Shown one piece after another: positions 8,282 to 16,525 of a stretch of 19,186 nt of DNA; position 1 is the first letter of the stretch; each line of letters opens with the position of its first letter. Under the pieces are notes generated by a model. That model had not been told where the DNA came from and did not search any database. It saw only the letters and a list, made by a program, of their open reading frames with translations. The position numbers and the translations under genes were made by a program. The DNA is from a virus: UHGV virus genome UHGV-1604764; one strand, written 5' to 3'.

Positions 8282-8452
8282 ATGTTTGTGAAACCTGTTA
8301 AAGGGCGGTCAGTGCCTGACCCTGCCCGCGGTGACCTTTTGCCCGCCGAAGGGCGAAATGTTGACGAGAACAACTACTGGCTGCGCCGTGAAGCAGCGGG
8401 TGATATCCGGCGCGTGAATAAAAAGGTGAACACCGATGACGATAAGCTTTAA
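8282..8452 (+). CDS. DUF2635-like small protein (Mu gp38-like), not in the supplied ORF track
   Basis: 56-aa ORF read manually: MFVKPVKGRSVPDPARGDLLPAEGRNVDENNYWLRREAAGDIRRVNKKVNTDDDKL. The MFVKP...DP...LLP.EG...YW.RR...GD pattern and its position directly upstream of (and overlapping) the sheath gene match Mu-like tails. Confidence 0.55.
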   Translation: MFVKPVKGRSVPDPARGDLLPAEGRNVDENNYWLRREAAGDIRRVNKKVNTDDDKL

Positions 8453-9932
8453 CACCATTCCGTCGAATACGCTGGTTCCGCTGTTTTATGCGGAAATGGA
8501 TAACCAGGCGGCGAATACTGCACAGGACAGCGGAGCATCGCTGCTGATTGGTCATGCCAATAACGGTGCAGAGATTGTTGCCAACAGTCTGGTGCTGATG
8601 CCGTCGGCAGACTATGCACGCCAGATTTGTGGTGCGGGAAGTCAGCTGGCGCGTATGGTCGAGGCTTATCGCCAGACCGACCCGTTTGGTGAGCTGTATG
8701 TGATTGCCGTTCCTGAATCCACGGGCGCGGCGGCAACGGTTACGCTGACGGTGACCGGGGCGGCAACCGAAACCGGCACGGTTAATGTTTATGTGGGACG
8801 TACCCGCGTACAGGCACCGGTGACCAACGGCGATAACGTTGCGACGATTGCCAGCAGTATCAAAGATGCCATCAATGCCGTTCCGGCCCTGCCGTTTACG
8901 GCTTCATCTTCGGCAGGCGTGGTCACACTGACCGCGCGTCATAAGGGGCTTTGCGGGAATGAAATTCCTGTCAGCCTCAATTACTACGGGTTTGGTGGGG
9001 GCGAAGTGCTGCCAGCGGGCGTACAGATTGCCGTGGCGACGGGTACCGCCGGAACGGGCGCTCCGGTTCTCACCGGCGCGGTGGCTGCAATGGCGGATGA
9101 GCCGTTTGATTATATCGGCCTGCCGTTCAACGACACGGCCTCCGTTAACACGCTGGTGACCGAGATGAACGATACCAGCGGTCGCTGGAGCTATGCGCGT
9201 CAGCTGTATGGTCATGTGTATACGGCAAAGATCGGCACGCTGTCAGAACTGGTGACCGCAGGTGACCAGTTTAACCAGCAGCACATTACCCTGGCGGGAT
9301 ACGAAAAAGACACTCAGACGCCAGCCGACGAGCTGGCGGCAAGCCGTACCGCCCGCGCAGCGGTGTTTATTCGCAACGATCCGGCACGTCCCACGCAGAC
9401 CGGTGAGCTGGTGGGTATGCTGCCTGCGCCGAAGGGGAAACGGTTCACGATGACCGAGCAACAGACCCTGCTGTCTCATGGCGTGGCAACGGCGTATGTC
9501 GAAAGTGGGGTACTGCGCATTCAGCGTGATGTCACCACGTACAGGAAAAACGCTTACGGGGTTGCGGATAACAGCTACCTCGACAGTGAGACGCTGCATA
9601 CCAGCGCGTATGTACTGCGCAAACTGAAATCCGTCATTACCAGTAAGTACGGGCGTCACAAGCTTGCCAGTGACGGTACCCGCTTTGGTCCCGGTCAGGC
9701 GATTGTCACCCCGGCGGTGATCAAAGGGGAACTGCTGGCAACCTACCGTCAGCTCGAGCGTGCGGGGATCGTGGAAAACTACGAACTGTTTAAGCAGTAC
9801 CTGGTTGTGGAGCGTGATGCCAGCGATCCGAACCGCCTGAACACGCTGTTCCCGCCTGACTATGTTAACCAGTTGCGTGTCTTTGCCGTGGTTAACCAGT
9901 TCCGTCTTCAGTATTCAGAGGAGTCTGCATAA
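8436..9932 (+). CDS. Contractile tail sheath protein (Mu gpL-like)
   Basis: 498 aa. N-terminus MTISFNTIPSNTLVPLFYAEMDN is typical of Mu-type sheath proteins. Followed by the tube gene with TAATG overlap. Confidence 0.88.
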   Translation: MTISFNTIPSNTLVPLFYAEMDNQAANTAQDSGASLLIGHANNGAEIVANSLVLMPSADYARQICGAGSQLARMVEAYRQTDPFGELYVIAVPESTGAAATVTLTVTGAATETGTVNVYVGRTRVQAPVTNGDNVATIASSIKDAINAVPALPFTASSSAGVVTLTARHKGLCGNEIPVSLNYYGFGGGEVLPAGVQIAVATGTAGTGAPVLTGAVAAMADEPFDYIGLPFNDTASVNTLVTEMNDTSGRWSYARQLYGHVYTAKIGTLSELVTAGDQFNQQHITLAGYEKDTQTPADELAASRTARAAVFIRNDPARPTQTGELVGMLPAPKGKRFTMTEQQTLLSHGVATAYVESGVLRIQRDVTTYRKNAYGVADNSYLDSETLHTSAYVLRKLKSVITSKYGRHKLASDGTRFGPGQAIVTPAVIKGELLATYRQLERAGIVENYELFKQYLVVERDASDPNRLNTLFPPDYVNQLRVFAVVNQFRLQYSEESA

Positions 9933-10288
9933 TGGCCCGTATCGGGGGAACCTGTTATTTCAAAATTGACGGTCAGCAGCTATCGCTGACCGGCGGCATT
10001 GAGGTGCCCATGAACAAAACGGTTAACGATGACATCATCGGCCTGGACGGTTCAGTGGACCGCAAGGAAACTCACCGTGCACCTTATGTCAAAGGGACCT
10101 TCAAGGTGCCGAAGAATTTTCCGGTGAGCAAAATCACCTCGTCTGATGAGATGACCATCACTGCCGAGCTGGCGAACGGTCAGGTCTATGTACTGTCGTC
10201 TGCCTGGCTGCACGGCGAAGCGAACCATAATGCCGAAGAAGGCACGGTCGATCTTGAGTTCCACGGTGAAGAAGGGGATTACCAGTAA
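9932..10288 (+). CDS. Tail tube protein (Mu gpM-like)
   Basis: 118 aa, immediately after the sheath. Size and position are typical of contractile-tail tube proteins. Confidence 0.75.
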   Translation: MARIGGTCYFKIDGQQLSLTGGIEVPMNKTVNDDIIGLDGSVDRKETHRAPYVKGTFKVPKNFPVSKITSSDEMTITAELANGQVYVLSSAWLHGEANHNAEEGTVDLEFHGEEGDYQ

Positions 10289-10557
10289 TGAAAGAGCTTG
10301 AGTTAAAGAAACCGATTACCGCTCATGGCGAGACACTCTCCGTACTGGAGTTTGATGAGCCCACCGGGAAAGATGTCCGCGAGCTGGGATATCCCTACCA
10401 GATGAATCAGGATGAGTCCGTCAGACTTCTGGCGCATGTGGTATCGAAATACATCGTGCGGCTGGCGAAAGTGCCGCAAAGCTCTGTCGACCAGATGTCT
10501 CCGGCAGACCTGAATGCAGCGGCGTGGCTTGTGGCCGGTTTTTTCCTCCAGGCCTGA
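10288..10557 (+). CDS. Tail assembly chaperone, short form
   Basis: 89 aa between tube and tape measure. Ends at TGA 10555-10557 just after a T-run slippery site. Confidence 0.75.
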   Translation: MKELELKKPITAHGETLSVLEFDEPTGKDVRELGYPYQMNQDESVRLLAHVVSKYIVRLAKVPQSSVDQMSPADLNAAAWLVAGFFLQA

Positions 10558-10706
10558 CGGCTGAATACCTCACTGATCGCTTCTTTGACTGCGCCAGTTA
10601 CTGGCGCATTAATCCCTTCGAATTGCTGAATATGCCGATCAGTGAAATTCCCTTGCTGGTCAGTCAGGCAAACAGGATAGAGCAGGAGAAACGCACACAT
10701 GGCTGA
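10288..10706 (+). CDS. Tail assembly chaperone, -1 frameshift-extended form (predicted)
   Basis: Heptamer T_TTT_TTC at 10539-10545 in the zero frame. A -1 slip joins ...VAGFF to PPGLTAEYL... in the overlapping ORF (10524-10706), which ends 7 nt into the tape measure gene. Confidence 0.65.
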
Positions 10707-12654
10707 ATTTGAGCTTAAGGCGTTGATCACCGGTGTCGACAGGCTTTCTCCCGCGCTGTCGAAAATGCAAAAGAAAATCCGGGGATTTAAACGCCAGGCG
10801 GAAGAAGCGTCACAGGGTGGGCTGGCGCTTGGTGGCGGACTGGCAGCGGGTCTGACGCTTTCCCTGAAATCTTATGCCGATCAGGAAAACGCCGCCACCG
10901 GGCTGAAAGTCGCCATGATGGATGCGAACGGCGAGGTTGGAAAGAGCTTTCAGGACATCAATAAACTGGCTATTGGCCTGGGTAACCAGCTACCCGGTAC
11001 AACGGCTGATTTCCAGAACATGATGCAGATGCTGGTGCGTCAGGGGATCCCGGCAGAAAACATTCTTGGTGGTGTGGGTAAAGCGACAGCTTATCTTGCG
11101 GTACAACTGAAAAAAACACCGGAAGCGGCTGCTGAGTTTGCTGCAAAGATGCAGGATGCTACCGGAACGGCGTCAGAAGACATGATGGGGCTGTTCGACA
11201 CTATCCAGAAGGCGTTTTATCTGGGCGTTGACGATACCAACATGTTGTCCTTCTTCACTAAAACCAGTTCTGTTCTGAAGATGGTGAACAAGGACGGTCT
11301 TCAGGCTGCACAGAGCCTTGCCCCCATCAGCGTCATGATGGATCAGATGGGGATGAACGGGGAGTCGGCAGGTAATGCCCTGCGAAAAGTTATCCAGTCC
11401 GGATTAAGCGTTAAGAAAATCAGGGACGTCAATAAAGTCATGGCCCGCCAGAGACTCGGGGTACAGCTCGATTTTACTGACGGCAAAGGAAGTTTTGGCG
11501 GTCTTGATAACATGTTCAGGCAACTGGCAAAGCTGCGAAAACTGACCGACGTTAAGCGAACAGGTGTACTTAAGGCAATATTTGGTGATGATGCCGAAAC
11601 CCTTCAGGTGGTCAATGCACTAATCGATAAAGGAAAGGATGGCTACGATCAGATCCAGCAGAAGATGAATAAACAGGCCAGCCTGAATAAACGTGTTCAG
11701 GCACAGCTTGGTACGCTGTCCAACCTGTGGGAGGCAATGACGGGGACCGCAACTAACGGCCTTGCGGCTATTGGCGGCGCATTTTCTGGTGACGCCAAAA
11801 ATATCACGCAATGGCTGGGGGAGTTGGGGGAAAAATTCACGAAGTTTGCGGATGAAAATCCCCGGGTTATTCGCGGCGTCGTCGGGCTTGCTGCCGGTCT
11901 TGCGATTCTGAAACTGGGATTGATGGGCGTGGGCAGTGCCATCAGTATCGTCAGCAGGATCATGTCGATGACGCCGATTGGCATGATTGCGACGGCGATT
12001 GCCTTGGCTGCGGGATTAATTATCACTAACTGGGATGTTGTTGGACCTTATTTCAAGAAGCTCTGGGAAACCATTGGTCCTTATTTTGAGGCTGGCTGGG
12101 AACTTCTGAAGAAGGTTTTTGCCTGGTCGCCGCTGGGGATGGTAATCAATAACTGGGGACCGGTTGTTAAGTGGTTTCAGGATATGTGGGACAAGCTGAA
12201 GCCAATTATTGAGTGGTTTACCGACAGTTCCGGTGACACGGTCGATGCCATTAACTCGGCGCAGTGGGGCGCGGGTGCTTATGATGCTTATGGGACGGGA
12301 ATACCGCCACGGGGATACACTCCTTATCCGGCGCAGTCAAACAACGCCTCCGGTGACACGGTCGATGCCATTAACTCTGCGCAGTGGGGCGCGGGTGCTT
12401 ATGATGCTTATGGGACGGGAATACCGGCGCGGGGATACACACCTTATCCGGCGGTAGATCCGGCTCAGTCAAACAACGCCTCCGATGCTACAGGCCCGAA
12501 TCCCTTCATGATTAACAAAGCTTCTGCGCCAAAAGTTGACGGTGAGATCAAGGTCTCTTTTGTGAATTCGCCTCCGGGTATGCGGGTTATGGAAACGCGA
12601 TCCAGCGGTTTTGATATAAATCACGATGTTGGCTATACGCATATTGGCAGATGA
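10699..12654 (+). CDS. Tail tape measure protein
   Basis: 651 aa. Ala/Gly/Gln-rich helical N-terminal region, hydrophobic segment (VIRGVVGLAAGLAILKLGLMGVGSAISIV...IATAIALAAGLIITNW), located after the chaperone/frameshift pair. Contains an internal tandem duplication. Confidence 0.85.
   Translation: MAEFELKALITGVDRLSPALSKMQKKIRGFKRQAEEASQGGLALGGGLAAGLTLSLKSYADQENAATGLKVAMMDANGEVGKSFQDINKLAIGLGNQLPGTTADFQNMMQMLVRQGIPAENILGGVGKATAYLAVQLKKTPEAAAEFAAKMQDATGTASEDMMGLFDTIQKAFYLGVDDTNMLSFFTKTSSVLKMVNKDGLQAAQSLAPISVMMDQMGMNGESAGNALRKVIQSGLSVKKIRDVNKVMARQRLGVQLDFTDGKGSFGGLDNMFRQLAKLRKLTDVKRTGVLKAIFGDDAETLQVVNALIDKGKDGYDQIQQKMNKQASLNKRVQAQLGTLSNLWEAMTGTATNGLAAIGGAFSGDAKNITQWLGELGEKFTKFADENPRVIRGVVGLAAGLAILKLGLMGVGSAISIVSRIMSMTPIGMIATAIALAAGLIITNWDVVGPYFKKLWETIGPYFEAGWELLKKVFAWSPLGMVINNWGPVVKWFQDMWDKLKPIIEWFTDSSGDTVDAINSAQWGAGAYDAYGTGIPPRGYTPYPAQSNNASGDTVDAINSAQWGAGAYDAYGTGIPARGYTPYPAVDPAQSNNASDATGPNPFMINKASAPKVDGEIKVSFVNSPPGMRVMETRSSGFDINHDVGYTHIGR
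12229..12480 (+). repeat. In-frame tandem duplication inside the tape measure gene (120-nt unit, then 132-nt unit)
   Basis: Copy 1 at 12229-12348 and copy 2 at 12349-12480 differ by 4 substitutions and a 12-nt in-frame insertion. Encodes SGDTVDAINSAQWGAGAYDAYGTGIP(P/A)RGYTPYPA(VDPA)QSNNA twice. Confidence 0.9.
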
Positions 12655-12670
12655 CGGAACCAGATATAAT
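12644..12670 (+). promoter_or_regulatory. Candidate sigma70-type promoter for the moron gene
   Basis: -35-like TTGGCA (12644-12649), 15-nt spacer, perfect -10 TATAAT (12665-12670). Lies in the last codons of the tape measure gene, about 37 nt upstream of the moron start codon. Confidence 0.45.
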
Positions 12671-12706
12671 TTGTCTTTAAGTTTGTTATCAACTGAAGGG
12701 AAATCT

Positions 12707-13084
12707 ATGGGTCTGTTACATGCCATTATAGGTAATGCCGGTGAAATTAATGCATCAGATGCACAACAGGAATTAGGGGCTGTTTTAGGTGAGGGAGAAA
12801 ATGTCGAACTTGCCTATAAACTCATTCGTGACCAAATTATTCTGACTAACAGAAGGTTAATTTTTATTGATAAGCAGGGTGTCACAGGGAAAAAAGTAGA
12901 GTATCGTTCGATTCCTTATAAATCTGTGACAAACTTTTCTATTGAAACCGCCGGGCATCTTGATCTTGATGCTGAAATGAAGATATGGATTTCTGGTATT
13001 GCAGAACCGATAAAAAAACAGTTCAGTAAAGGAGCAAACATTTATAAATTGCAGGCTCATCTGGCTCAAAAAATAGCAGGGTAA
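12707..13084 (+). CDS. Moron-encoded soluble protein, bacterial PH-like domain (bPH_1/DUF1696-like), function unknown
   Basis: 125 aa from ATG 12707 (AAGGGA RBS). The ORF-track start at 12626 lies inside the tape measure gene and is rejected. About 40% GC against mid-50s% in flanking genes. Motifs LTNRRLIFIDKQGVTGKK, SIPY, ETAGHLDLDAEMKIWISG recall the bPH_1 family (from memory). Confidence 0.6.
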   Translation: MGLLHAIIGNAGEINASDAQQELGAVLGEGENVELAYKLIRDQIILTNRRLIFIDKQGVTGKKVEYRSIPYKSVTNFSIETAGHLDLDAEMKIWISGIAEPIKKQFSKGANIYKLQAHLAQKIAG

Positions 13085-13147: not shown

Positions 13148-14476
13148 ATGACGTGGAAAGACAGGCTTCAGGACGCGTCATTTCGCGGTGTGCCGTTTAA
13201 GGTTGAAGAAGAAAGTGCGGGAACAGGTCGCCGTGTGGAAACACACGAATATCCGAACCGCGACAAACCCTATACCGAAGATCTGGGAAAAGTCACTTTC
13301 CGCCCGTCCATCACGGCTTATGTGGTGGGCGATGACTGCTTTGACCAGCGCGATCGCCTGATTGACGCGCTGAATAAACCCGGTCCCGGCACGCTTGTCC
13401 ACCCGACTTACGGTGAGCTGAAAGTCTGTGTTGACGGAGAGGTTCGGGTCAGCACATCGAAAAGTGAAGGGCGTATTGTCCGCTTTGACCTGAAGTTTGT
13501 CGAAGCGGGAGAACTCTCTTACCCCACATCAGGTGCGGCGACGGCGCAGACGCTGATGTCATCCTGTTCTGCACTGGATGACTGCATCAGTGACAGCTTC
13601 AGCGGTTTCAGTATCGATGGTGTGGCGGATTTCGTGCAGAACGACGTTATCGGTAATGCCAGCATAATGCTGGGGTATGTTTCTGATGCGATGAAAGTGG
13701 TGGATTCTGCCGTATCGGATGCCGCCAGGCTGTTGCAGGGGGATATCTCGGTACTTCTGCCGCCGCCATCGTCAGGCAAAAATTTCGTTGAGCAGGTGCA
13801 GAAAATGTGGCGTACCGGGAAACGCCTTTATGGTAACGCCAGCGACCTGGTCACCATGATCAAAACGCTTTCCGGTGTCAGCCTCGGCAGCGATCTGCAA
13901 CCGCGCGGCGTCTGGAAAACGGACAGTAAAACCACCGCCACGGCGACGCAGCAGCGTAACGTGGTTGCCAGCACCCTTCGTGCGACCGCAATCAGCGAAG
14001 CGGCGTATGCCGTCACCCGATTGCCTGCGCCAACAACTTCCGCGGTGATGCAGAATGCCGCAGTGGGGCAGTCAACAACTTCCGCGCAGAGCACCGGCTG
14101 GCCTTCCGTCACGCATCCGGCACTGAACAATGCACCGGCGGTGAAAAACACGGTTGACCTGCCAACGTGGGAAGAACTGACTGACATTCGCGACACACTG
14201 AATACGGCAATTGATAAGGAGTTGTCCCGTACAACCAGTGATGCGCTGTTTCTGGCGCTGCGCCGGGTGAAAGCAGATCTGAATGCGGATATCAACACGC
14301 GCCTTGAACAGTCTGCTCGGATCATTCAGCGCACGCCGGATGAGGTCTTACCCGCGCTGGTGCTGGCGGCGACCTGGTTTGATAACGCGGCGCGTGACGC
14401 GGACATTATCCGGCGTAATGCCATTACGCATCCCGGCTTTGTGCCGGTGATCCCTCTGAAGGTGCCAGTGCAATGA
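13148..14476 (+). CDS. DNA circulation protein (Mu gp43-like)
   Basis: Start set to ATG 13148 (GGAG 5 nt upstream). ORF-track 13100 would read through the terminator hairpin. N-terminus MTWKDRLQDASFRGVPFKV...GRRVETHEYPNRDKPYTEDLG...GPGTLVHPTYG matches the DNA-circulation N-terminal domain. Confidence 0.8.
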   Translation: MTWKDRLQDASFRGVPFKVEEESAGTGRRVETHEYPNRDKPYTEDLGKVTFRPSITAYVVGDDCFDQRDRLIDALNKPGPGTLVHPTYGELKVCVDGEVRVSTSKSEGRIVRFDLKFVEAGELSYPTSGAATAQTLMSSCSALDDCISDSFSGFSIDGVADFVQNDVIGNASIMLGYVSDAMKVVDSAVSDAARLLQGDISVLLPPPSSGKNFVEQVQKMWRTGKRLYGNASDLVTMIKTLSGVSLGSDLQPRGVWKTDSKTTATATQQRNVVASTLRATAISEAAYAVTRLPAPTTSAVMQNAAVGQSTTSAQSTGWPSVTHPALNNAPAVKNTVDLPTWEELTDIRDTLNTAIDKELSRTTSDALFLALRRVKADLNADINTRLEQSARIIQRTPDEVLPALVLAATWFDNAARDADIIRRNAITHPGFVPVIPLKVPVQ

Positions 14477-15552
14477 ACGATAACGTCACGCTACGGGTAA
14501 ATGGCCGGGAGTGGAATGGCTGGACATCGGTGCGCATCGGTGCCGGTATTGAACGGCTGGCGCGGGATTTCAGCGTGGAGATCACCCGCCAGTGGCCGGG
14601 AGATGAGGGTATCACCACGCTTCAGCCGCGCATTAAAAATGGTTCAAAAGTGGAAGTGCTGATTGGTGATGAGCTGGTGATCACCGGCTGGGTGGAGGCG
14701 ACCCCCGTTCGTTACGATGCCCGTTCGGTCAGCACCGGTATTGCCGGACGTAGTCTGACGGCTGACCTGATTGACTGTGCAGCCGAACCGACACAGTTTA
14801 ACGGACGCTCGCTGGTGCAGATTGCGCAGGCGCTTGCTGCGCCTTTCGGCATTGAGGTGGTGAACAGCGATGCGCCGTCGGGTGTTATTCCGGATGTCCA
14901 GCCTGATCACGGTGAAACGGTGATCGAGGTGATCAACAAAATACTCGGTCAGCAGCAGGCGCTGGCTTATGACGACCCGCACGGCAGGCTGGTGATTGGT
15001 GGTATTGGCTCAACGCGGGCACATACCGCGCTGGTACTCGGGGAAAACATCCTTTCCTGTGATACGGAGAAGAGTATCCGGGAGCGGTTTTCAGTTTACC
15101 AGGTGGCGGGGCAGCGTGCCGGAAACGACGATGATTTCGGTGAGGCCACCACCACCGCGCTGCGGGCCCGCACAGAGGACGCATTTATTGCCCGTTACCG
15201 TCCGATGTATATCAGGCAGACAGGGCAGGCTACGGGGGCAGGCTGTATTGCCCGTGCGGACTTTGAAGCCCGACAACGGGCGGCGCGGACGGATGAAACC
15301 ACCTATGTGGTGCAGGGCTGGCGACAGGGTAACGGTACGCTGTGGCAGCCCAACCAGCGGGTGATTGTCTTTGATCCGGTCTGTGGTTTCGACAATACCG
15401 AACTGCTTGTTTCGGAAGTCACGTTTACTCAGGACCAGAACGGCACCCTGACGGAAATCCGTGTCGGCCCACCTGATGCTTATCTGCCTGAACCCGAAGC
15501 CCCCGGCGCGCGGAAAAAGAAAAAAGCCAGAGTACAGGAGGAGCCGTTCTGA
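14473..15552 (+). CDS. Baseplate hub protein (Mu gp44 / P2 gpD-like)
   Basis: 359 aa. ATGA overlap with the upstream gene. Position and size match the Mu-like baseplate hub. Confidence 0.7.
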   Translation: MNDNVTLRVNGREWNGWTSVRIGAGIERLARDFSVEITRQWPGDEGITTLQPRIKNGSKVEVLIGDELVITGWVEATPVRYDARSVSTGIAGRSLTADLIDCAAEPTQFNGRSLVQIAQALAAPFGIEVVNSDAPSGVIPDVQPDHGETVIEVINKILGQQQALAYDDPHGRLVIGGIGSTRAHTALVLGENILSCDTEKSIRERFSVYQVAGQRAGNDDDFGEATTTALRARTEDAFIARYRPMYIRQTGQATGAGCIARADFEARQRAARTDETTYVVQGWRQGNGTLWQPNQRVIVFDPVCGFDNTELLVSEVTFTQDQNGTLTEIRVGPPDAYLPEPEAPGARKKKKARVQEEPF

Positions 15553-16100
15553 TGAGGACGATTGAAGCCATGCAGCGACAACTCCTCGGCCTGATTGGGC
15601 GGGCCGTGGTGAAAAGCATCAGTGCCGCCACGAAATGTCAGACCGTGGATGTGTCCCTGATTGCCGGTGAACCCAAAGCCGGGGTTGAACATCTTGAACC
15701 CTACGGTTTTACCGCAAGGGCAAACAGCGGTGCGGAAGCGGTGGTGTTGTTTCCGGATGGCGACCGTTCTCATGCGGTGGTTGTTACGGTGTCGGACCGT
15801 CGCTACCGCCTGAAAGGGCTGCAAACGGGGGAGGTGGCTGTCTATGACGATCAGGGGCAGTCCGTGACGCTGACCCGGGAGGGGATCGTGGTGGACGGTG
15901 CAGGTAAAACGATCACGTTTCGCAATGCGCCCAGAGCACGCTTTGAAATGGACCTGGAAGTGACCGGACAGGTGAAAGACCTGTGCGACTCCGGCGGCAC
16001 CACCATGTCAGCGATGCGGCTTGCCTATAACGGGCATCGTCACAGAGAGAACGGTCAGGGCAGTAACACCGACAAACCTGATAAAGCGATGGAGGCATGA
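15552..16100 (+). CDS. Baseplate spike/assembly protein V (Mu gp45-like)
   Basis: 182 aa. Start overlaps the upstream stop. Size and position match gpV-type spike proteins. Confidence 0.7.
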   Translation: MRTIEAMQRQLLGLIGRAVVKSISAATKCQTVDVSLIAGEPKAGVEHLEPYGFTARANSGAEAVVLFPDGDRSHAVVVTVSDRRYRLKGLQTGEVAVYDDQGQSVTLTREGIVVDGAGKTITFRNAPRARFEMDLEVTGQVKDLCDSGGTTMSAMRLAYNGHRHRENGQGSNTDKPDKAMEA

Positions 16101-16525
16101 TGGAACTGTGGCTGACGGTGAACGGTAAACGCACCTGCGCCAGCGCACCGCTGGATCCGCTGCCCCGCGCCGTGGTGATTTCCCTGTTCACCTGGCGGCG
16201 GGCGGAGCCTGATGACAACGCCGACGTCCCGATGGGATGGTGGGGGGATACCTGGCCTGCGGTACAGAATGACCGTTACGGCTCCCGACTGTGGCTGCTT
16301 CAGCGCAGCAAACTGACCAATCAGCTGGTGCAGACGGTAAGGGGGTATATCCGCGAATGCCTGCAATGGATGATTGATGACGGCGTGGTGTCCCGTATTG
16401 ATCTGGATATCCGCCGCACCGGGATTAATGAGCTTGGTAACAGTATCACTCTCTGGCGTCGTGACGGACCGGTAATGATTTCTTTTGATGATCTGTGGAG
16501 TGCGATAACGCATGGCGGACAGTGA
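16097..16525 (+). CDS. Baseplate protein (Mu gp46-like / gpW-gp25-like)
   Basis: 142 aa. ATGA overlap. Conserved position between V-like and J-like baseplate genes. Confidence 0.65.
   Translation: MMELWLTVNGKRTCASAPLDPLPRAVVISLFTWRRAEPDDNADVPMGWWGDTWPAVQNDRYGSRLWLLQRSKLTNQLVQTVRGYIRECLQWMIDDGVVSRIDLDIRRTGINELGNSITLWRRDGPVMISFDDLWSAITHGGQ

Follow-up and report, generated by a model that had tools for sequence, protein, structure and literature searches.

A probable recent in-frame tandem duplication in the tape measure gene of an SfV-like element of Escherichia coli

The protein-ruler model of tail length rests classically on in-frame length changes in tail tape measure proteins (TMPs). In phage lambda, tail length reportedly follows the length of gpH roughly linearly through the engineered in-frame duplications and deletions of Katsura and Hendrix, and engineered in-frame changes in the TMP of T4, gp29, are likewise followed roughly linearly by the tail. 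The helical part of the protein is usually regarded as the ruler. In TP901-1, tail length is also linear with TMP length, and about 127 terminal TMP residues add nothing to it (PMC5099701). Natural duplication and loss of TMP repeat units have been described (Belcaid, Bergeron and Poisson, 2011, PMC3271669), as have TMP tandem repeats and homorepeats (PMC13585406). In phage Mu, cryo-EM shows the TMP filling the lumen of the tube, with hub and spike gripping its extreme C-terminus. Of gp42 only residues 674-690, the last 17, are ordered, and they lie between hub gp44 and spike gp45; the Mu tail has 30 rings and its TMP 690 aa (PMC11915804). In phage SfI the TMP has 611 aa and the tail measures about 110 nm.

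The DNA analysed here (the window, 19,186 nt from a UHGV virus genome, UHGV-1604764) belongs to an SfV-like temperate phage or prophage of E. coli, whose head is of HK97 type and whose contractile tail is of Mu type. A gene at 10699-12654 (+), encoding 651 aa, is identified as the TMP gene by the PF10145 domain, by the TMP annotation of its relatives and by its place, after the chaperone gene and ahead of those for DNA circulation and the baseplate hub. PF10145 (PhageMin_Tail) covers aa 88-296 (E 1.1e-26; score 94 bits, cut-off 33), PHROG TMP families also match, and the gene is 97-98% identical in nucleotides to the TMP genes of five phages, SfV, SfII, SfI, SKA5 and 689R6; homologues are annotated as TMPs in SfV, SfII, SfI and RefSeq. 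The tail genes run in the order sheath (8436-9932), tube (9932-10288), chaperone (10288-10706, +), TMP, a DNA_circ_N gene and then the hub. The chaperone has PF10109 at 10288-10557 and a -1 frameshift extension (T_TTT_TTC) to 10706, and the DNA-circulation or tube-initiator gene (13148-14476, +) is a homologue of Mu gp43 by PF07157 and alignment. The structural gene block is intact, with gene lengths equal to those of SfV. A bPH-domain gene that follows the TMP gene is absent from SfV, SfII and SfI, and the gp43-like gene next to the TMP carries a perfect 42-nt repeat, a 14-aa linker repeat present in one to three copies within the same lineage. The TMP itself has hydrophobic stretches at aa ~391-443 and then a region of tryptophans spaced about 11 residues apart from 445 to 506 (W445, W456, W467, ... 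W506). A separate 123-nt duplication lies inside this Trp-periodic region in CP056594.1.

Past the last of these tryptophans come two adjoining, head-to-tail units. Copy 1 (12229-12348, +) has 120 nt and encodes aa 511-550; copy 2 (12349-12480, +) has 132 nt and encodes aa 551-594. Each begins at a codon boundary of the TMP open reading frame and is a multiple of 3 nt long, and the frame stays intact. The original prediction described near-identical neighbours separated by four substitutions and one 12-nt indel, and this is what the sequence, Tandem Repeats Finder and pairwise alignment give: exactly four substitutions and the indel. The array reported by Tandem Repeats Finder (12229-12453, period 120, 1.9 copies, 96% matches) scores 422, and the second-best array in the window 51. 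The substitutions fall at unit positions 30, 79, 81 and 93 (12258/12378, 12307/12427, 12309/12429 and 12321/12441), and at the protein level the copies differ in Pro537 versus Ala577 and in four residues, VDPA, and nothing else. Identity of 116/120 between adjoining segments is far beyond chance. The motif had been called Gly/Tyr/Pro-rich, which is roughly right by composition (per unit Gly 6, Tyr 4, Pro 4), but Ala, with 7-9, is the commonest residue. Open reading frames that overlap the repeat in other frames (12209-12457, +; 12469-12726, -) were dismissed as lacking support, and an Rfam search of the whole window found no family. The joint reading, that this is a genuine tandem duplication of a 132-nt (44-aa) segment, in frame, of recent evolutionary origin and produced by slippage, is given a probability of roughly 85%.

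How common is the duplicated state among relatives? The comparison of related prophages that had been proposed finds one, two and three copies of the unit. SfV, SfII, SfI, SKA5 and 689R6 (5/5 phage relatives) each have one 132-nt copy, with TMPs of 610-611 aa against 651 aa in the window, and large protein clusters of 610-611 aa (1385-3667 members) are single-copy TMPs. The TMP region matches 917 complete E. coli genomes, and a search among these for the sequence of the duplication junction found it in only five of the approximately 830-920 that have the gene; about 99% of complete E. coli genomes with the TMP gene are single-copy. The closest complete genome to the whole window is that of HH107 (98.8%), and no identical complete genome was found. 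Elsewhere the junction occurs in five IMG/VR contigs and in one metagenome contig, which has the haplotype of the window, and the databases (NCBI, ENA) hold 30 distinct two-copy proteins on many contigs, some with different C-termini. The sequences are already public, under the annotation of tape measure proteins. There were no matches to the junction in one-genome-per-species contigs, and more than three copies were not found in IMG/VR, the metagenome set or the best 120 protein matches.

This distribution, polymorphic and with a single copy in every phage relative, bears out the claim that the duplication is recent. It also bears on two other accounts of the repeat. An expanded or mis-phased repeat produced by assembly is conceivable in that a 120-nt unit is near the length of short reads, and some haplotypes, such as the one with identical copies, are known from draft assemblies alone; but five complete E. 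coli chromosomes, obtained in different laboratories, have the junction, as do the contigs and the 30 proteins, and such an artefact is highly improbable. A two-repeat architecture fixed long ago in the TMP family, with diverged copies in all relatives, is more improbable still and practically negligible: it has in its favour that two copies are present in the window and nothing more, and it is contradicted by copies that are 96-100% identical and by the single copy in the 610-611 aa clusters, in 5/5 phage relatives and in >99% of the E. coli genomes that have the gene.

The 12-nt difference had been read as an insertion in copy 2, which is the wrong direction. The 12 nt (GTAGATCCGGCT, encoding VDPA), retained in copy 2 at 12454-12465 (+), are present in all 85 single-copy loci examined, within a 153-nt segment, and in both copies of 132+132 alleles. 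Because 85/85 single-copy loci have them and one allele is 132+132, copy 1 carries a deletion, between 12333 and 12334, and copy 2 is the full-length ancestral form. A second slippage event would have removed them. The segment is flanked by an imperfect direct repeat, CCGGCG/CCGGCT; however, copy 1 reads CCGGCG after the deletion, whereas simple slippage within the repeat predicts CCGGCT, and this counts against slippage at that step.

The duplication itself has a plausible substrate. Where there is one copy, a short direct repeat, TCCGGTG ... TCCG(G/A)TG, 132 nt apart, marks the bounds of the segment. In the window, TCCGGTG stands at 12229-12235 (+), as it does in single-copy alleles, and recurs at the junction of the copies (12349-12355); the downstream partner at 12481-12487 (+) is TCCGATG, and it is TCCGGTG in SfV, SfI, 689R6 and an independently duplicated allele. 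Preservation of frame, terminal direct repeats and copy number that varies among near-identical relatives are all present, and they place the locus with microhomology-mediated in-frame tandem duplications. At this microhomology, slippage during replication or unequal recombination would have generated the 132-nt duplication, and unequal exchange between the copies could then move copy number up or down.

That such repeats are prone to expansion and contraction, as had been suggested, is well illustrated by alleles with one, two and three copies on nearly identical backgrounds. UViG_2636415959 has a perfect 132+132 array (655 aa, open reading frame intact); UViG_2875722834 has 120+132 with otherwise identical copies; UViG_2565956724 has 120+132 with the CCA..T patch described below; and UViG_2563366965 has three copies, 120+120+132 (691 aa, open reading frame intact). 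The alleles of the window lineage and the single-copy allele of G3/10 differ among themselves by 0-8 nt in 1500 nt upstream and by 0-2 in 1300 nt downstream. Any order of events read from this series is provisional, and single-copy alleles such as those of LR-62-2 or G3/10 could be products of contraction and not parents. A further allele, GCA_020170735.1, has 132+132 on another background, with 22 upstream mismatches, other downstream gene content and the perfect 7-nt TCCGGTG microhomology. Judged from these flanks, the 132-nt segment was duplicated at least twice, on different allele backgrounds. A copy-number change of this sort is unremarkable, both as length variation in this gene and as microevolution of a prophage structural gene.

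Where did the four substitutions come from? Copy 2 matches the single unit of SfV, SfII, SfI and E. coli LR-62-2 exactly. The patch of copy 1 (CCA...T, at 12307, 12309 and 12321) has the states of the SKA5/689R6 allele, a correspondence with P about 1e-7 for random matches. The window and UViG_2875722834 agree throughout 2800 flanking nt; they differ at four sites, all within the 252-nt repeat (P about 5e-5 under uniform placement). Two-copy proteins in the databases show PPR/PAR, PAR/PAR and PPR/PPR combinations, and forms with and without the patch are found on two flank backgrounds, which indicates that recombination has shuffled them. The substitutions, matching alleles that circulate in single-copy relatives, look imported by gene conversion rather than acquired as point mutations after duplication. 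Short-patch conversion from other circulating TMP alleles would have brought three clustered changes into copy 1 (GCG>CCA, ACA>ACT) and one into copy 2 (TCG>TCT). Since the differing states already exist in single-copy relatives, the near-identity of the copies, offered as a sign of recent origin, cannot serve as a clock. There is a small methodological lesson here: the few differences look like imported allelic states, and divergence between the copies is no basis for dating this duplication.

An alternative is a one-step unequal crossover, out of register, between two SfV-like phages with an SKA5-type and an SfV/LR-62-2-type TMP allele, with each copy from a different parent. At each of the four sites that differ, copy 1 does agree with SKA5/689R6 and copy 2 with SfV/LR-62-2, and partners would be available, as many E. 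coli genomes hold up to three such prophages. This reading is quite improbable. No single-copy allele has the U-V junction minus 12 nt, hence a single step cannot yield 120+132, and the perfect 132+132 and identical-copy 120+132 alleles exist as intermediates on the same background. At 12204 and 12213, directly before copy 1, the states of the window differ from those of SKA5; within copy 1, the V part has T where SKA5 has G. No single-copy allele was found that matches the flank of the window plus copy 1 exactly; the best single-copy match to this stretch keeps two mismatches in 204 nt. Slippage followed by short-patch conversion remains the preferred course of events.

What might the added segment do? 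The duplicated unit sits past the predicted helical part of the TMP, about 57 residues ahead of the C-terminus. An AlphaFold2 model of the whole TMP (18-sequence alignment; mean pLDDT 30.6, pTM 0.21), helical from residue 1 to ~509 and coil thereafter, was rejected as unusable for fold or fold search at that pLDDT. A PDB sequence search with the full TMP gave one weak match only, to the diffocin TMP 8v3w_B over aa 294-501, and a search with the C-terminal 101 aa gave a chance match only (E 1.3). The crude helix/coil boundary of the AlphaFold2 model, a weak prediction, suggests together with composition that the unit is a non-helical linker between the helical, hydrophobic and Trp-periodic part and a C-terminal anchor. 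The last 101 aa match 28 representatives among 1.84 billion proteins, and the distant matches cover mainly query residues 46-101, the final ~50 aa. The C-terminal 57 residues (SDATGPNPF...GYTHIGR; 12481-12651, +) are accordingly the more widely conserved end, presumed to anchor in hub and spike. Within the unit, the first ~30 residues (DTV.A.N..QWGAG.Y.AYGTG....GY) are conserved across subfamilies, and TMP subfamilies of 593/596 aa lack its second half.

The duplication would add 40 residues (+6.5%) to a non-helical, lineage-specific linker. If the linker counts towards the ruler, the tail would be about 6-7 nm longer, or one to two tube and sheath rings; if it sits inside the lumen of the hub and initiator, there may be no visible change in the tail. 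The odds of an effect on tail length are roughly even. The extra residues could also be a functionally silent passenger that alters neither tail length nor infectivity, either a disordered loop in that lumen or a product of cryptic carriers, with no selection acting on the tail. Some carriers are decaying: 873.10 has a frameshifted invertase and a truncated tail fibre, 1332KP has a frameshifted invertase too, and 730V1 carries IS5 and IS26 in its tail-fibre region, so that the duplication could be neutral. Carriers whose prophages look intact include G5, HH107 and 1332KP. The unit is lineage-specific and variable, as the 593/596-aa subfamilies show; the 42-nt repeat of the gp43-like gene (one to three perfect copies) fits tolerated slippage; and TP901-1 offers a precedent in its roughly 127 terminal residues outside tail-length control. 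Two copies were not found in any virion-derived genome of an isolated phage in the phage collection, so the 651-aa protein may or may not build working tails. Against neutrality, the structural genes of the window are intact and of SfV length, the 30 distinct two-copy proteins on many contigs, some with other C-termini, indicate that the allele has circulated and recombined, and conservation of the first ~30 unit residues suggests more than a spacer. On balance a silent role is a credible prospect, with a little less than an even chance. It is unlikely that the C-terminal linker, perhaps together with the 14-aa repeat of the gp43-like initiator, is a natural, recurrently mutating length-tuning locus whose alleles differ by whole rings or alter release of the TMP from the hub. 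Should this be true, ready-made alleles are at hand with which to find out if the ruler of contractile tails takes in non-helical C-terminal segments.

How does the locus compare with known systems? The TMPs of SfV, SfII and SfI (orf14; 611 aa) have the same unit, flanks and C-terminus as the window, in single copy. The tail module of phage Mu is homologous and in the same order (sheath, tube, chaperone, TMP, gp43-like DNA-circulation protein, gp44-like hub); the model of Mu gp42 covers residues 674-690 only, and the C-terminal region of the window TMP has no detectable sequence match to any solved chain. As with the repeats described previously (PMC3271669, PMC13585406), a change in the copy number of a tandem unit makes the TMPs of related phages differ in length. 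The units described by Belcaid and co-workers, however, are 11-aa (or 11/18-aa) and Trp/Phe-periodic, whereas the present unit has 44 aa with a single Trp, shows no 11-aa periodicity within itself and follows the Trp-periodic region; it is not of that type. Given the place of TMP length changes in the ruler model, a natural series of one-, two- and three-copy alleles in one lineage is a convenient test set, and could show if the stretch that separates the helical ruler from the hub anchor adds to tail length in a contractile tail. The TP901-1 TMP (Pedersen, 2000; Mahony, 2016, PMC5099701) likewise changes length in frame in an otherwise unchanged tail module; there the changes were engineered, whereas those of the window are natural and polymorphic, belong to a Mu-type contractile tail and fall in a non-helical C-terminal linker and not in a helical or repeat core, with an effect on length that is predicted.

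Two direct copies of a segment lie head to tail in the gene for the tail's tape measure protein (TMP), at 12229-12348 (copy 1, 120 nt) and 12349-12480 (copy 2, 132 nt). Both start at a codon boundary of the ORF, 10699-12654, and encode residues 511-550 and 551-594, respectively. Pairwise alignment reveals exactly four substitutions (unit positions 30, 79, 81 and 93) and one 12-nt indel, GTAGATCCGGCT, found at 12454-12465 and in copy 2 only. Two of the substitutions leave the amino acid unchanged (TCG/TCT Ser; ACT/ACA Thr), and the other two share one codon, CCA for Pro537 in copy 1 vs GCG for Ala577 in copy 2. Tandem Repeats Finder delineates a single array (12229-12453, period 120, 96% matches, score 422), and no other array in the whole window scores above 51. 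The adjacent, in-frame 120-nt and 132-nt units of the original prediction, with four substitutions and one 12-nt indel, are thus correctly described and far beyond chance. A weak 21-nt x 2 repeat at 11970-12012 (77% matches, score 51), within the TMP hydrophobic segment, is probably compositional.

The assignment as a tape measure gene also holds. The 651-aa product has a PhageMin_Tail domain (PF10145, aa 88-296, E 1e-26) and matches PHROG tape measure families strongly, and the gene is 97-98% identical in nucleotide sequence to tape measure genes of the Shigella/E. coli phages SfV, SfII, SfI, SKA5 and vB_EcoM-689R6. These phages carry Mu-like tail modules by their annotations. The window is therefore the structural region of an SfV-like E. 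coli prophage. No complete genome is identical across the whole window, the closest being HH107 (98.8%). Gene order is sheath, tube, PF10109 tail assembly chaperone and TMP, with a DNA_circ_N gene and baseplate genes downstream. The chaperone ORF (10288-10557) has a T_TTT_TTC slippery heptamer at its 3' end (10539-10545), and its -1 frame extension (10524-10706) overlaps the start of the TMP gene; the two make up the programmed frameshift that is conserved for this chaperone. A gene for a 125-aa bacterial PH-domain protein (bPH; 12707-13084, or 12626-13084 by ORF finder; PF08000, E 6e-48; phrog_7115, unknown function) separates the TMP gene from the DNA-circulation gene. It is absent there in SfV, SfI and SfII, and unrelated ORFs fill the position in SKA5 and K-15KW01; the position is a variable moron slot.

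How widespread is the duplication? Comparison of relatives' tape measure genes, as originally suggested, reveals one, two and three copies. Each of the five phages has one 132-nt unit, and their TMPs are 610-611 aa long. Among 5426 complete E. coli genomes, 917 match the TMP gene's 3' part, and only five of these (730V1, 873.10, G5, HH107 and 1332KP) show no 120-nt gap over the query; the same five are the only ones that fully match a 90-nt probe spanning the copy junction. In the protein collection, single-copy clusters have 1385-3667 members, and the two-copy form is represented by about 30 near-identical 651-aa sequences from a few contigs each. The duplication is therefore a rare allele, present in about 0.5% of the complete genomes that carry the gene. 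An ancient feature fixed throughout the family is ruled out by the single copy in the five phages and most E. coli genomes, and an artefact of one assembly by the same junction in five complete genomes.

An allelic series emerged from IMG/VR, where a junction pattern search gave five contigs and a search for relatives 80 further loci; the region was then split into units. In UViG_2636415959 the two 132-nt copies match perfectly (655 aa). UViG_2875722834 is 120+132, with copies identical except for the 12-nt gap, and UViG_2565956724, also 120+132, has in copy 1 the clustered CCA...T patch (window positions 12307, 12309 and 12321). The window, 730V1 and one metagenome contig add TCT in copy 2 to this patch. 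A third copy is present in UViG_2563366965 (120+120+132), whose 691-aa ORF is intact. Over 1500 nt upstream, the flanks of these alleles and of the single-copy G3/10 show 0-8 differences, and over 1300 nt downstream 0-2. Expansion and contraction of the repeat, as claimed originally, is thus seen as one-, two- and three-copy alleles on nearly identical flanks. The 12-nt difference had been read as an insertion. It is indeed in frame, but the 12 nt are present in all 85 single-copy loci (40 haplotypes) and the flanks are nearly identical, so the 12 nt are ancestral and copy 1 suffered a deletion.

GCA_020170735.1 carries 132+132 on an allele that is clearly distinct (22 upstream differences, no bPH gene downstream), although the end points are the same; the duplication has therefore arisen at least twice. 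The patch and no-patch forms occur on two flank backgrounds, a distribution that leaves the order of events unproven; single-copy alleles such as E. coli LR-62-2 could be contraction products. In IMGVR_UViG_2541047898_000005 (L013, 1-400) a two-copy allele is joined to an SKA5/K-15KW01-like C-terminal end (...GYTRFW), and three database proteins have two copies and a ...VSHDVGYTRFGR end. Different ends behind two copies indicate recombination downstream of the repeat.

Where did the four substitutions come from? The copy 1 states (G, CCA, T) are those of the single unit in SKA5 and 689R6; the copy 2 states (T, GCG, A) are those of SfV, SfII, SfI and LR-62-2, whose TMP gene otherwise has two differences from the window's among the variable columns compared. 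Over 2800 flanking nt the window does not differ from UViG_2875722834; the two differ at exactly these four sites, all in the 252-nt repeat (P ~5e-5, given a uniform distribution of differences). Three random substitutions would give the three SKA5-type states with P ~1e-7. Among database proteins there are, in addition, PAR/PAR and PPR/PPR combinations, and the C-termini that follow the two copies vary. All this is most economically read as short-patch gene conversion or recombination, both between the copies and with other alleles in circulation. Near-identity of the copies, originally taken as a sign of recency, therefore says little about age. The recency itself is borne out by the distribution among relatives.

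How did the duplication originate? In single-copy alleles the 132-nt segment starts with TCCGGTG, and TCCGATG or TCCGGTG lies directly 3', a microhomology of 4-7 nt exactly at the end points. Replication slippage and illegitimate unequal exchange usually leave such a mark, and either may have produced the 132-nt duplication. With two copies of 120-132 nt in place, unequal homologous exchange could raise or lower their number, and the three-copy allele would be accounted for in this way. CCGGCG and CCGGCT flank the 12-nt deletion.

Other parts of the lineage vary similarly. CP056594.1 has a perfect 123-nt (41-aa) in-frame tandem duplication (TMP nt 1329-1574, bounded by TAACTGGG) in the Trp-periodic region, equivalent to window 12027-12149; its product is also 651 aa. 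This duplication is shared by a Klebsiella-labelled protein of 652 aa. Other TMP family variants are shorter by 11, 30, 33 or 35 residues. That all are in frame is no evidence of selection, since they came from protein searches. The next tail gene, for the DNA-circulation protein (a Mu gp43-like tube initiator), contains a perfect 42-nt tandem repeat (14 aa, TTSAVMQNAAVGQS), at 14031-14072 with a partial copy to ~14086 in the window, at 22032-22171 in the 730V1 locus (L006) and in the gene at 15149-16516 of the 873.10 locus (L099). There is one copy in the window and SfV, two in 873.10 and three in 730V1, all 100% identical; the 1332KP gene (1371 nt) equals that of 873.10 in length. It is a second recent in-frame copy-number polymorphism of the lineage and may fall within the flexible loop that, in Mu, has been described as joining the two domains of gp43.

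Would the extra residues lengthen the tail? By sequence, the TMP has hydrophobic stretches (~391-443), Trp at ~11-residue spacing (445-506), the units and a 57-residue C-terminal end. An AlphaFold model, unreliable at a mean pLDDT of 30.6, is helical to ~residue 509 and coil beyond. The last 101 residues, searched against 1.84 billion representatives, found only 28 proteins, the distant ones matching just the final ~50 residues, and in the 593/596-aa subfamilies the unit retains its first ~30 residues but lacks the second half. These results portray the unit as a variable linker, specific to the lineage, in which an N-terminal motif is conserved, the extreme C-terminus being the conserved part. 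The Mu TMP, 690 aa for 30 tail rings, occupies the lumen of the tube, and only its residues 674-690, clamped between hub and spike, are ordered (PMC11915804). SfI has a 611-aa TMP and a ~110 nm tail (PMC3636060). The TP901-1 tail varies linearly in length with its TMP, although ~127 terminal residues do not count (PMC5099701). Calculated by proportion, 40 residues would correspond to ~6-7 nm or ~1.7 rings, and only if the linker is in the measuring part; the odds of a measurable lengthening are roughly even.

The duplication may possibly be a neutral change in partly cryptic prophages. Some carriers are decaying (L099 21600-24634; 1332KP locus, L100, 22422-25456; L006 28275-30473): 873.10 and 1332KP, with the prophage at dusA, share a frameshifted invertase gene, the tail-fibre gene of 873.10 is truncated, and the 730V1 prophage contains IS5 and IS26 in its tail-fibre region. 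The phage collection contains no virion-derived genome with the two-copy allele. Set against neutrality, the structural genes of the window are intact and equal in length to those of SfV. Separate ~44-kb 'plasmid' records (NZ_CP081704.1, NZ_CP081794.1 and NZ_CP172337.1; 43.7-44.8 kb) are single-copy SfV-like elements beside a chromosomal copy, which suggests excised circular phage genomes.

The original interpretation is supported with two corrections, a deletion for the indel and putatively imported substitutions. In-frame TMP gene duplications and deletions, engineered and natural, are well described, e.g. in lambda gpH and T4 gp29, and the present case is a further natural example. The unit does not belong to the 11-residue Trp/Phe class of TMP repeats. 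Of interest are its position in a putatively non-helical C-terminal linker of a contractile-tail TMP, its recurrence and the series of one, two and three copies.
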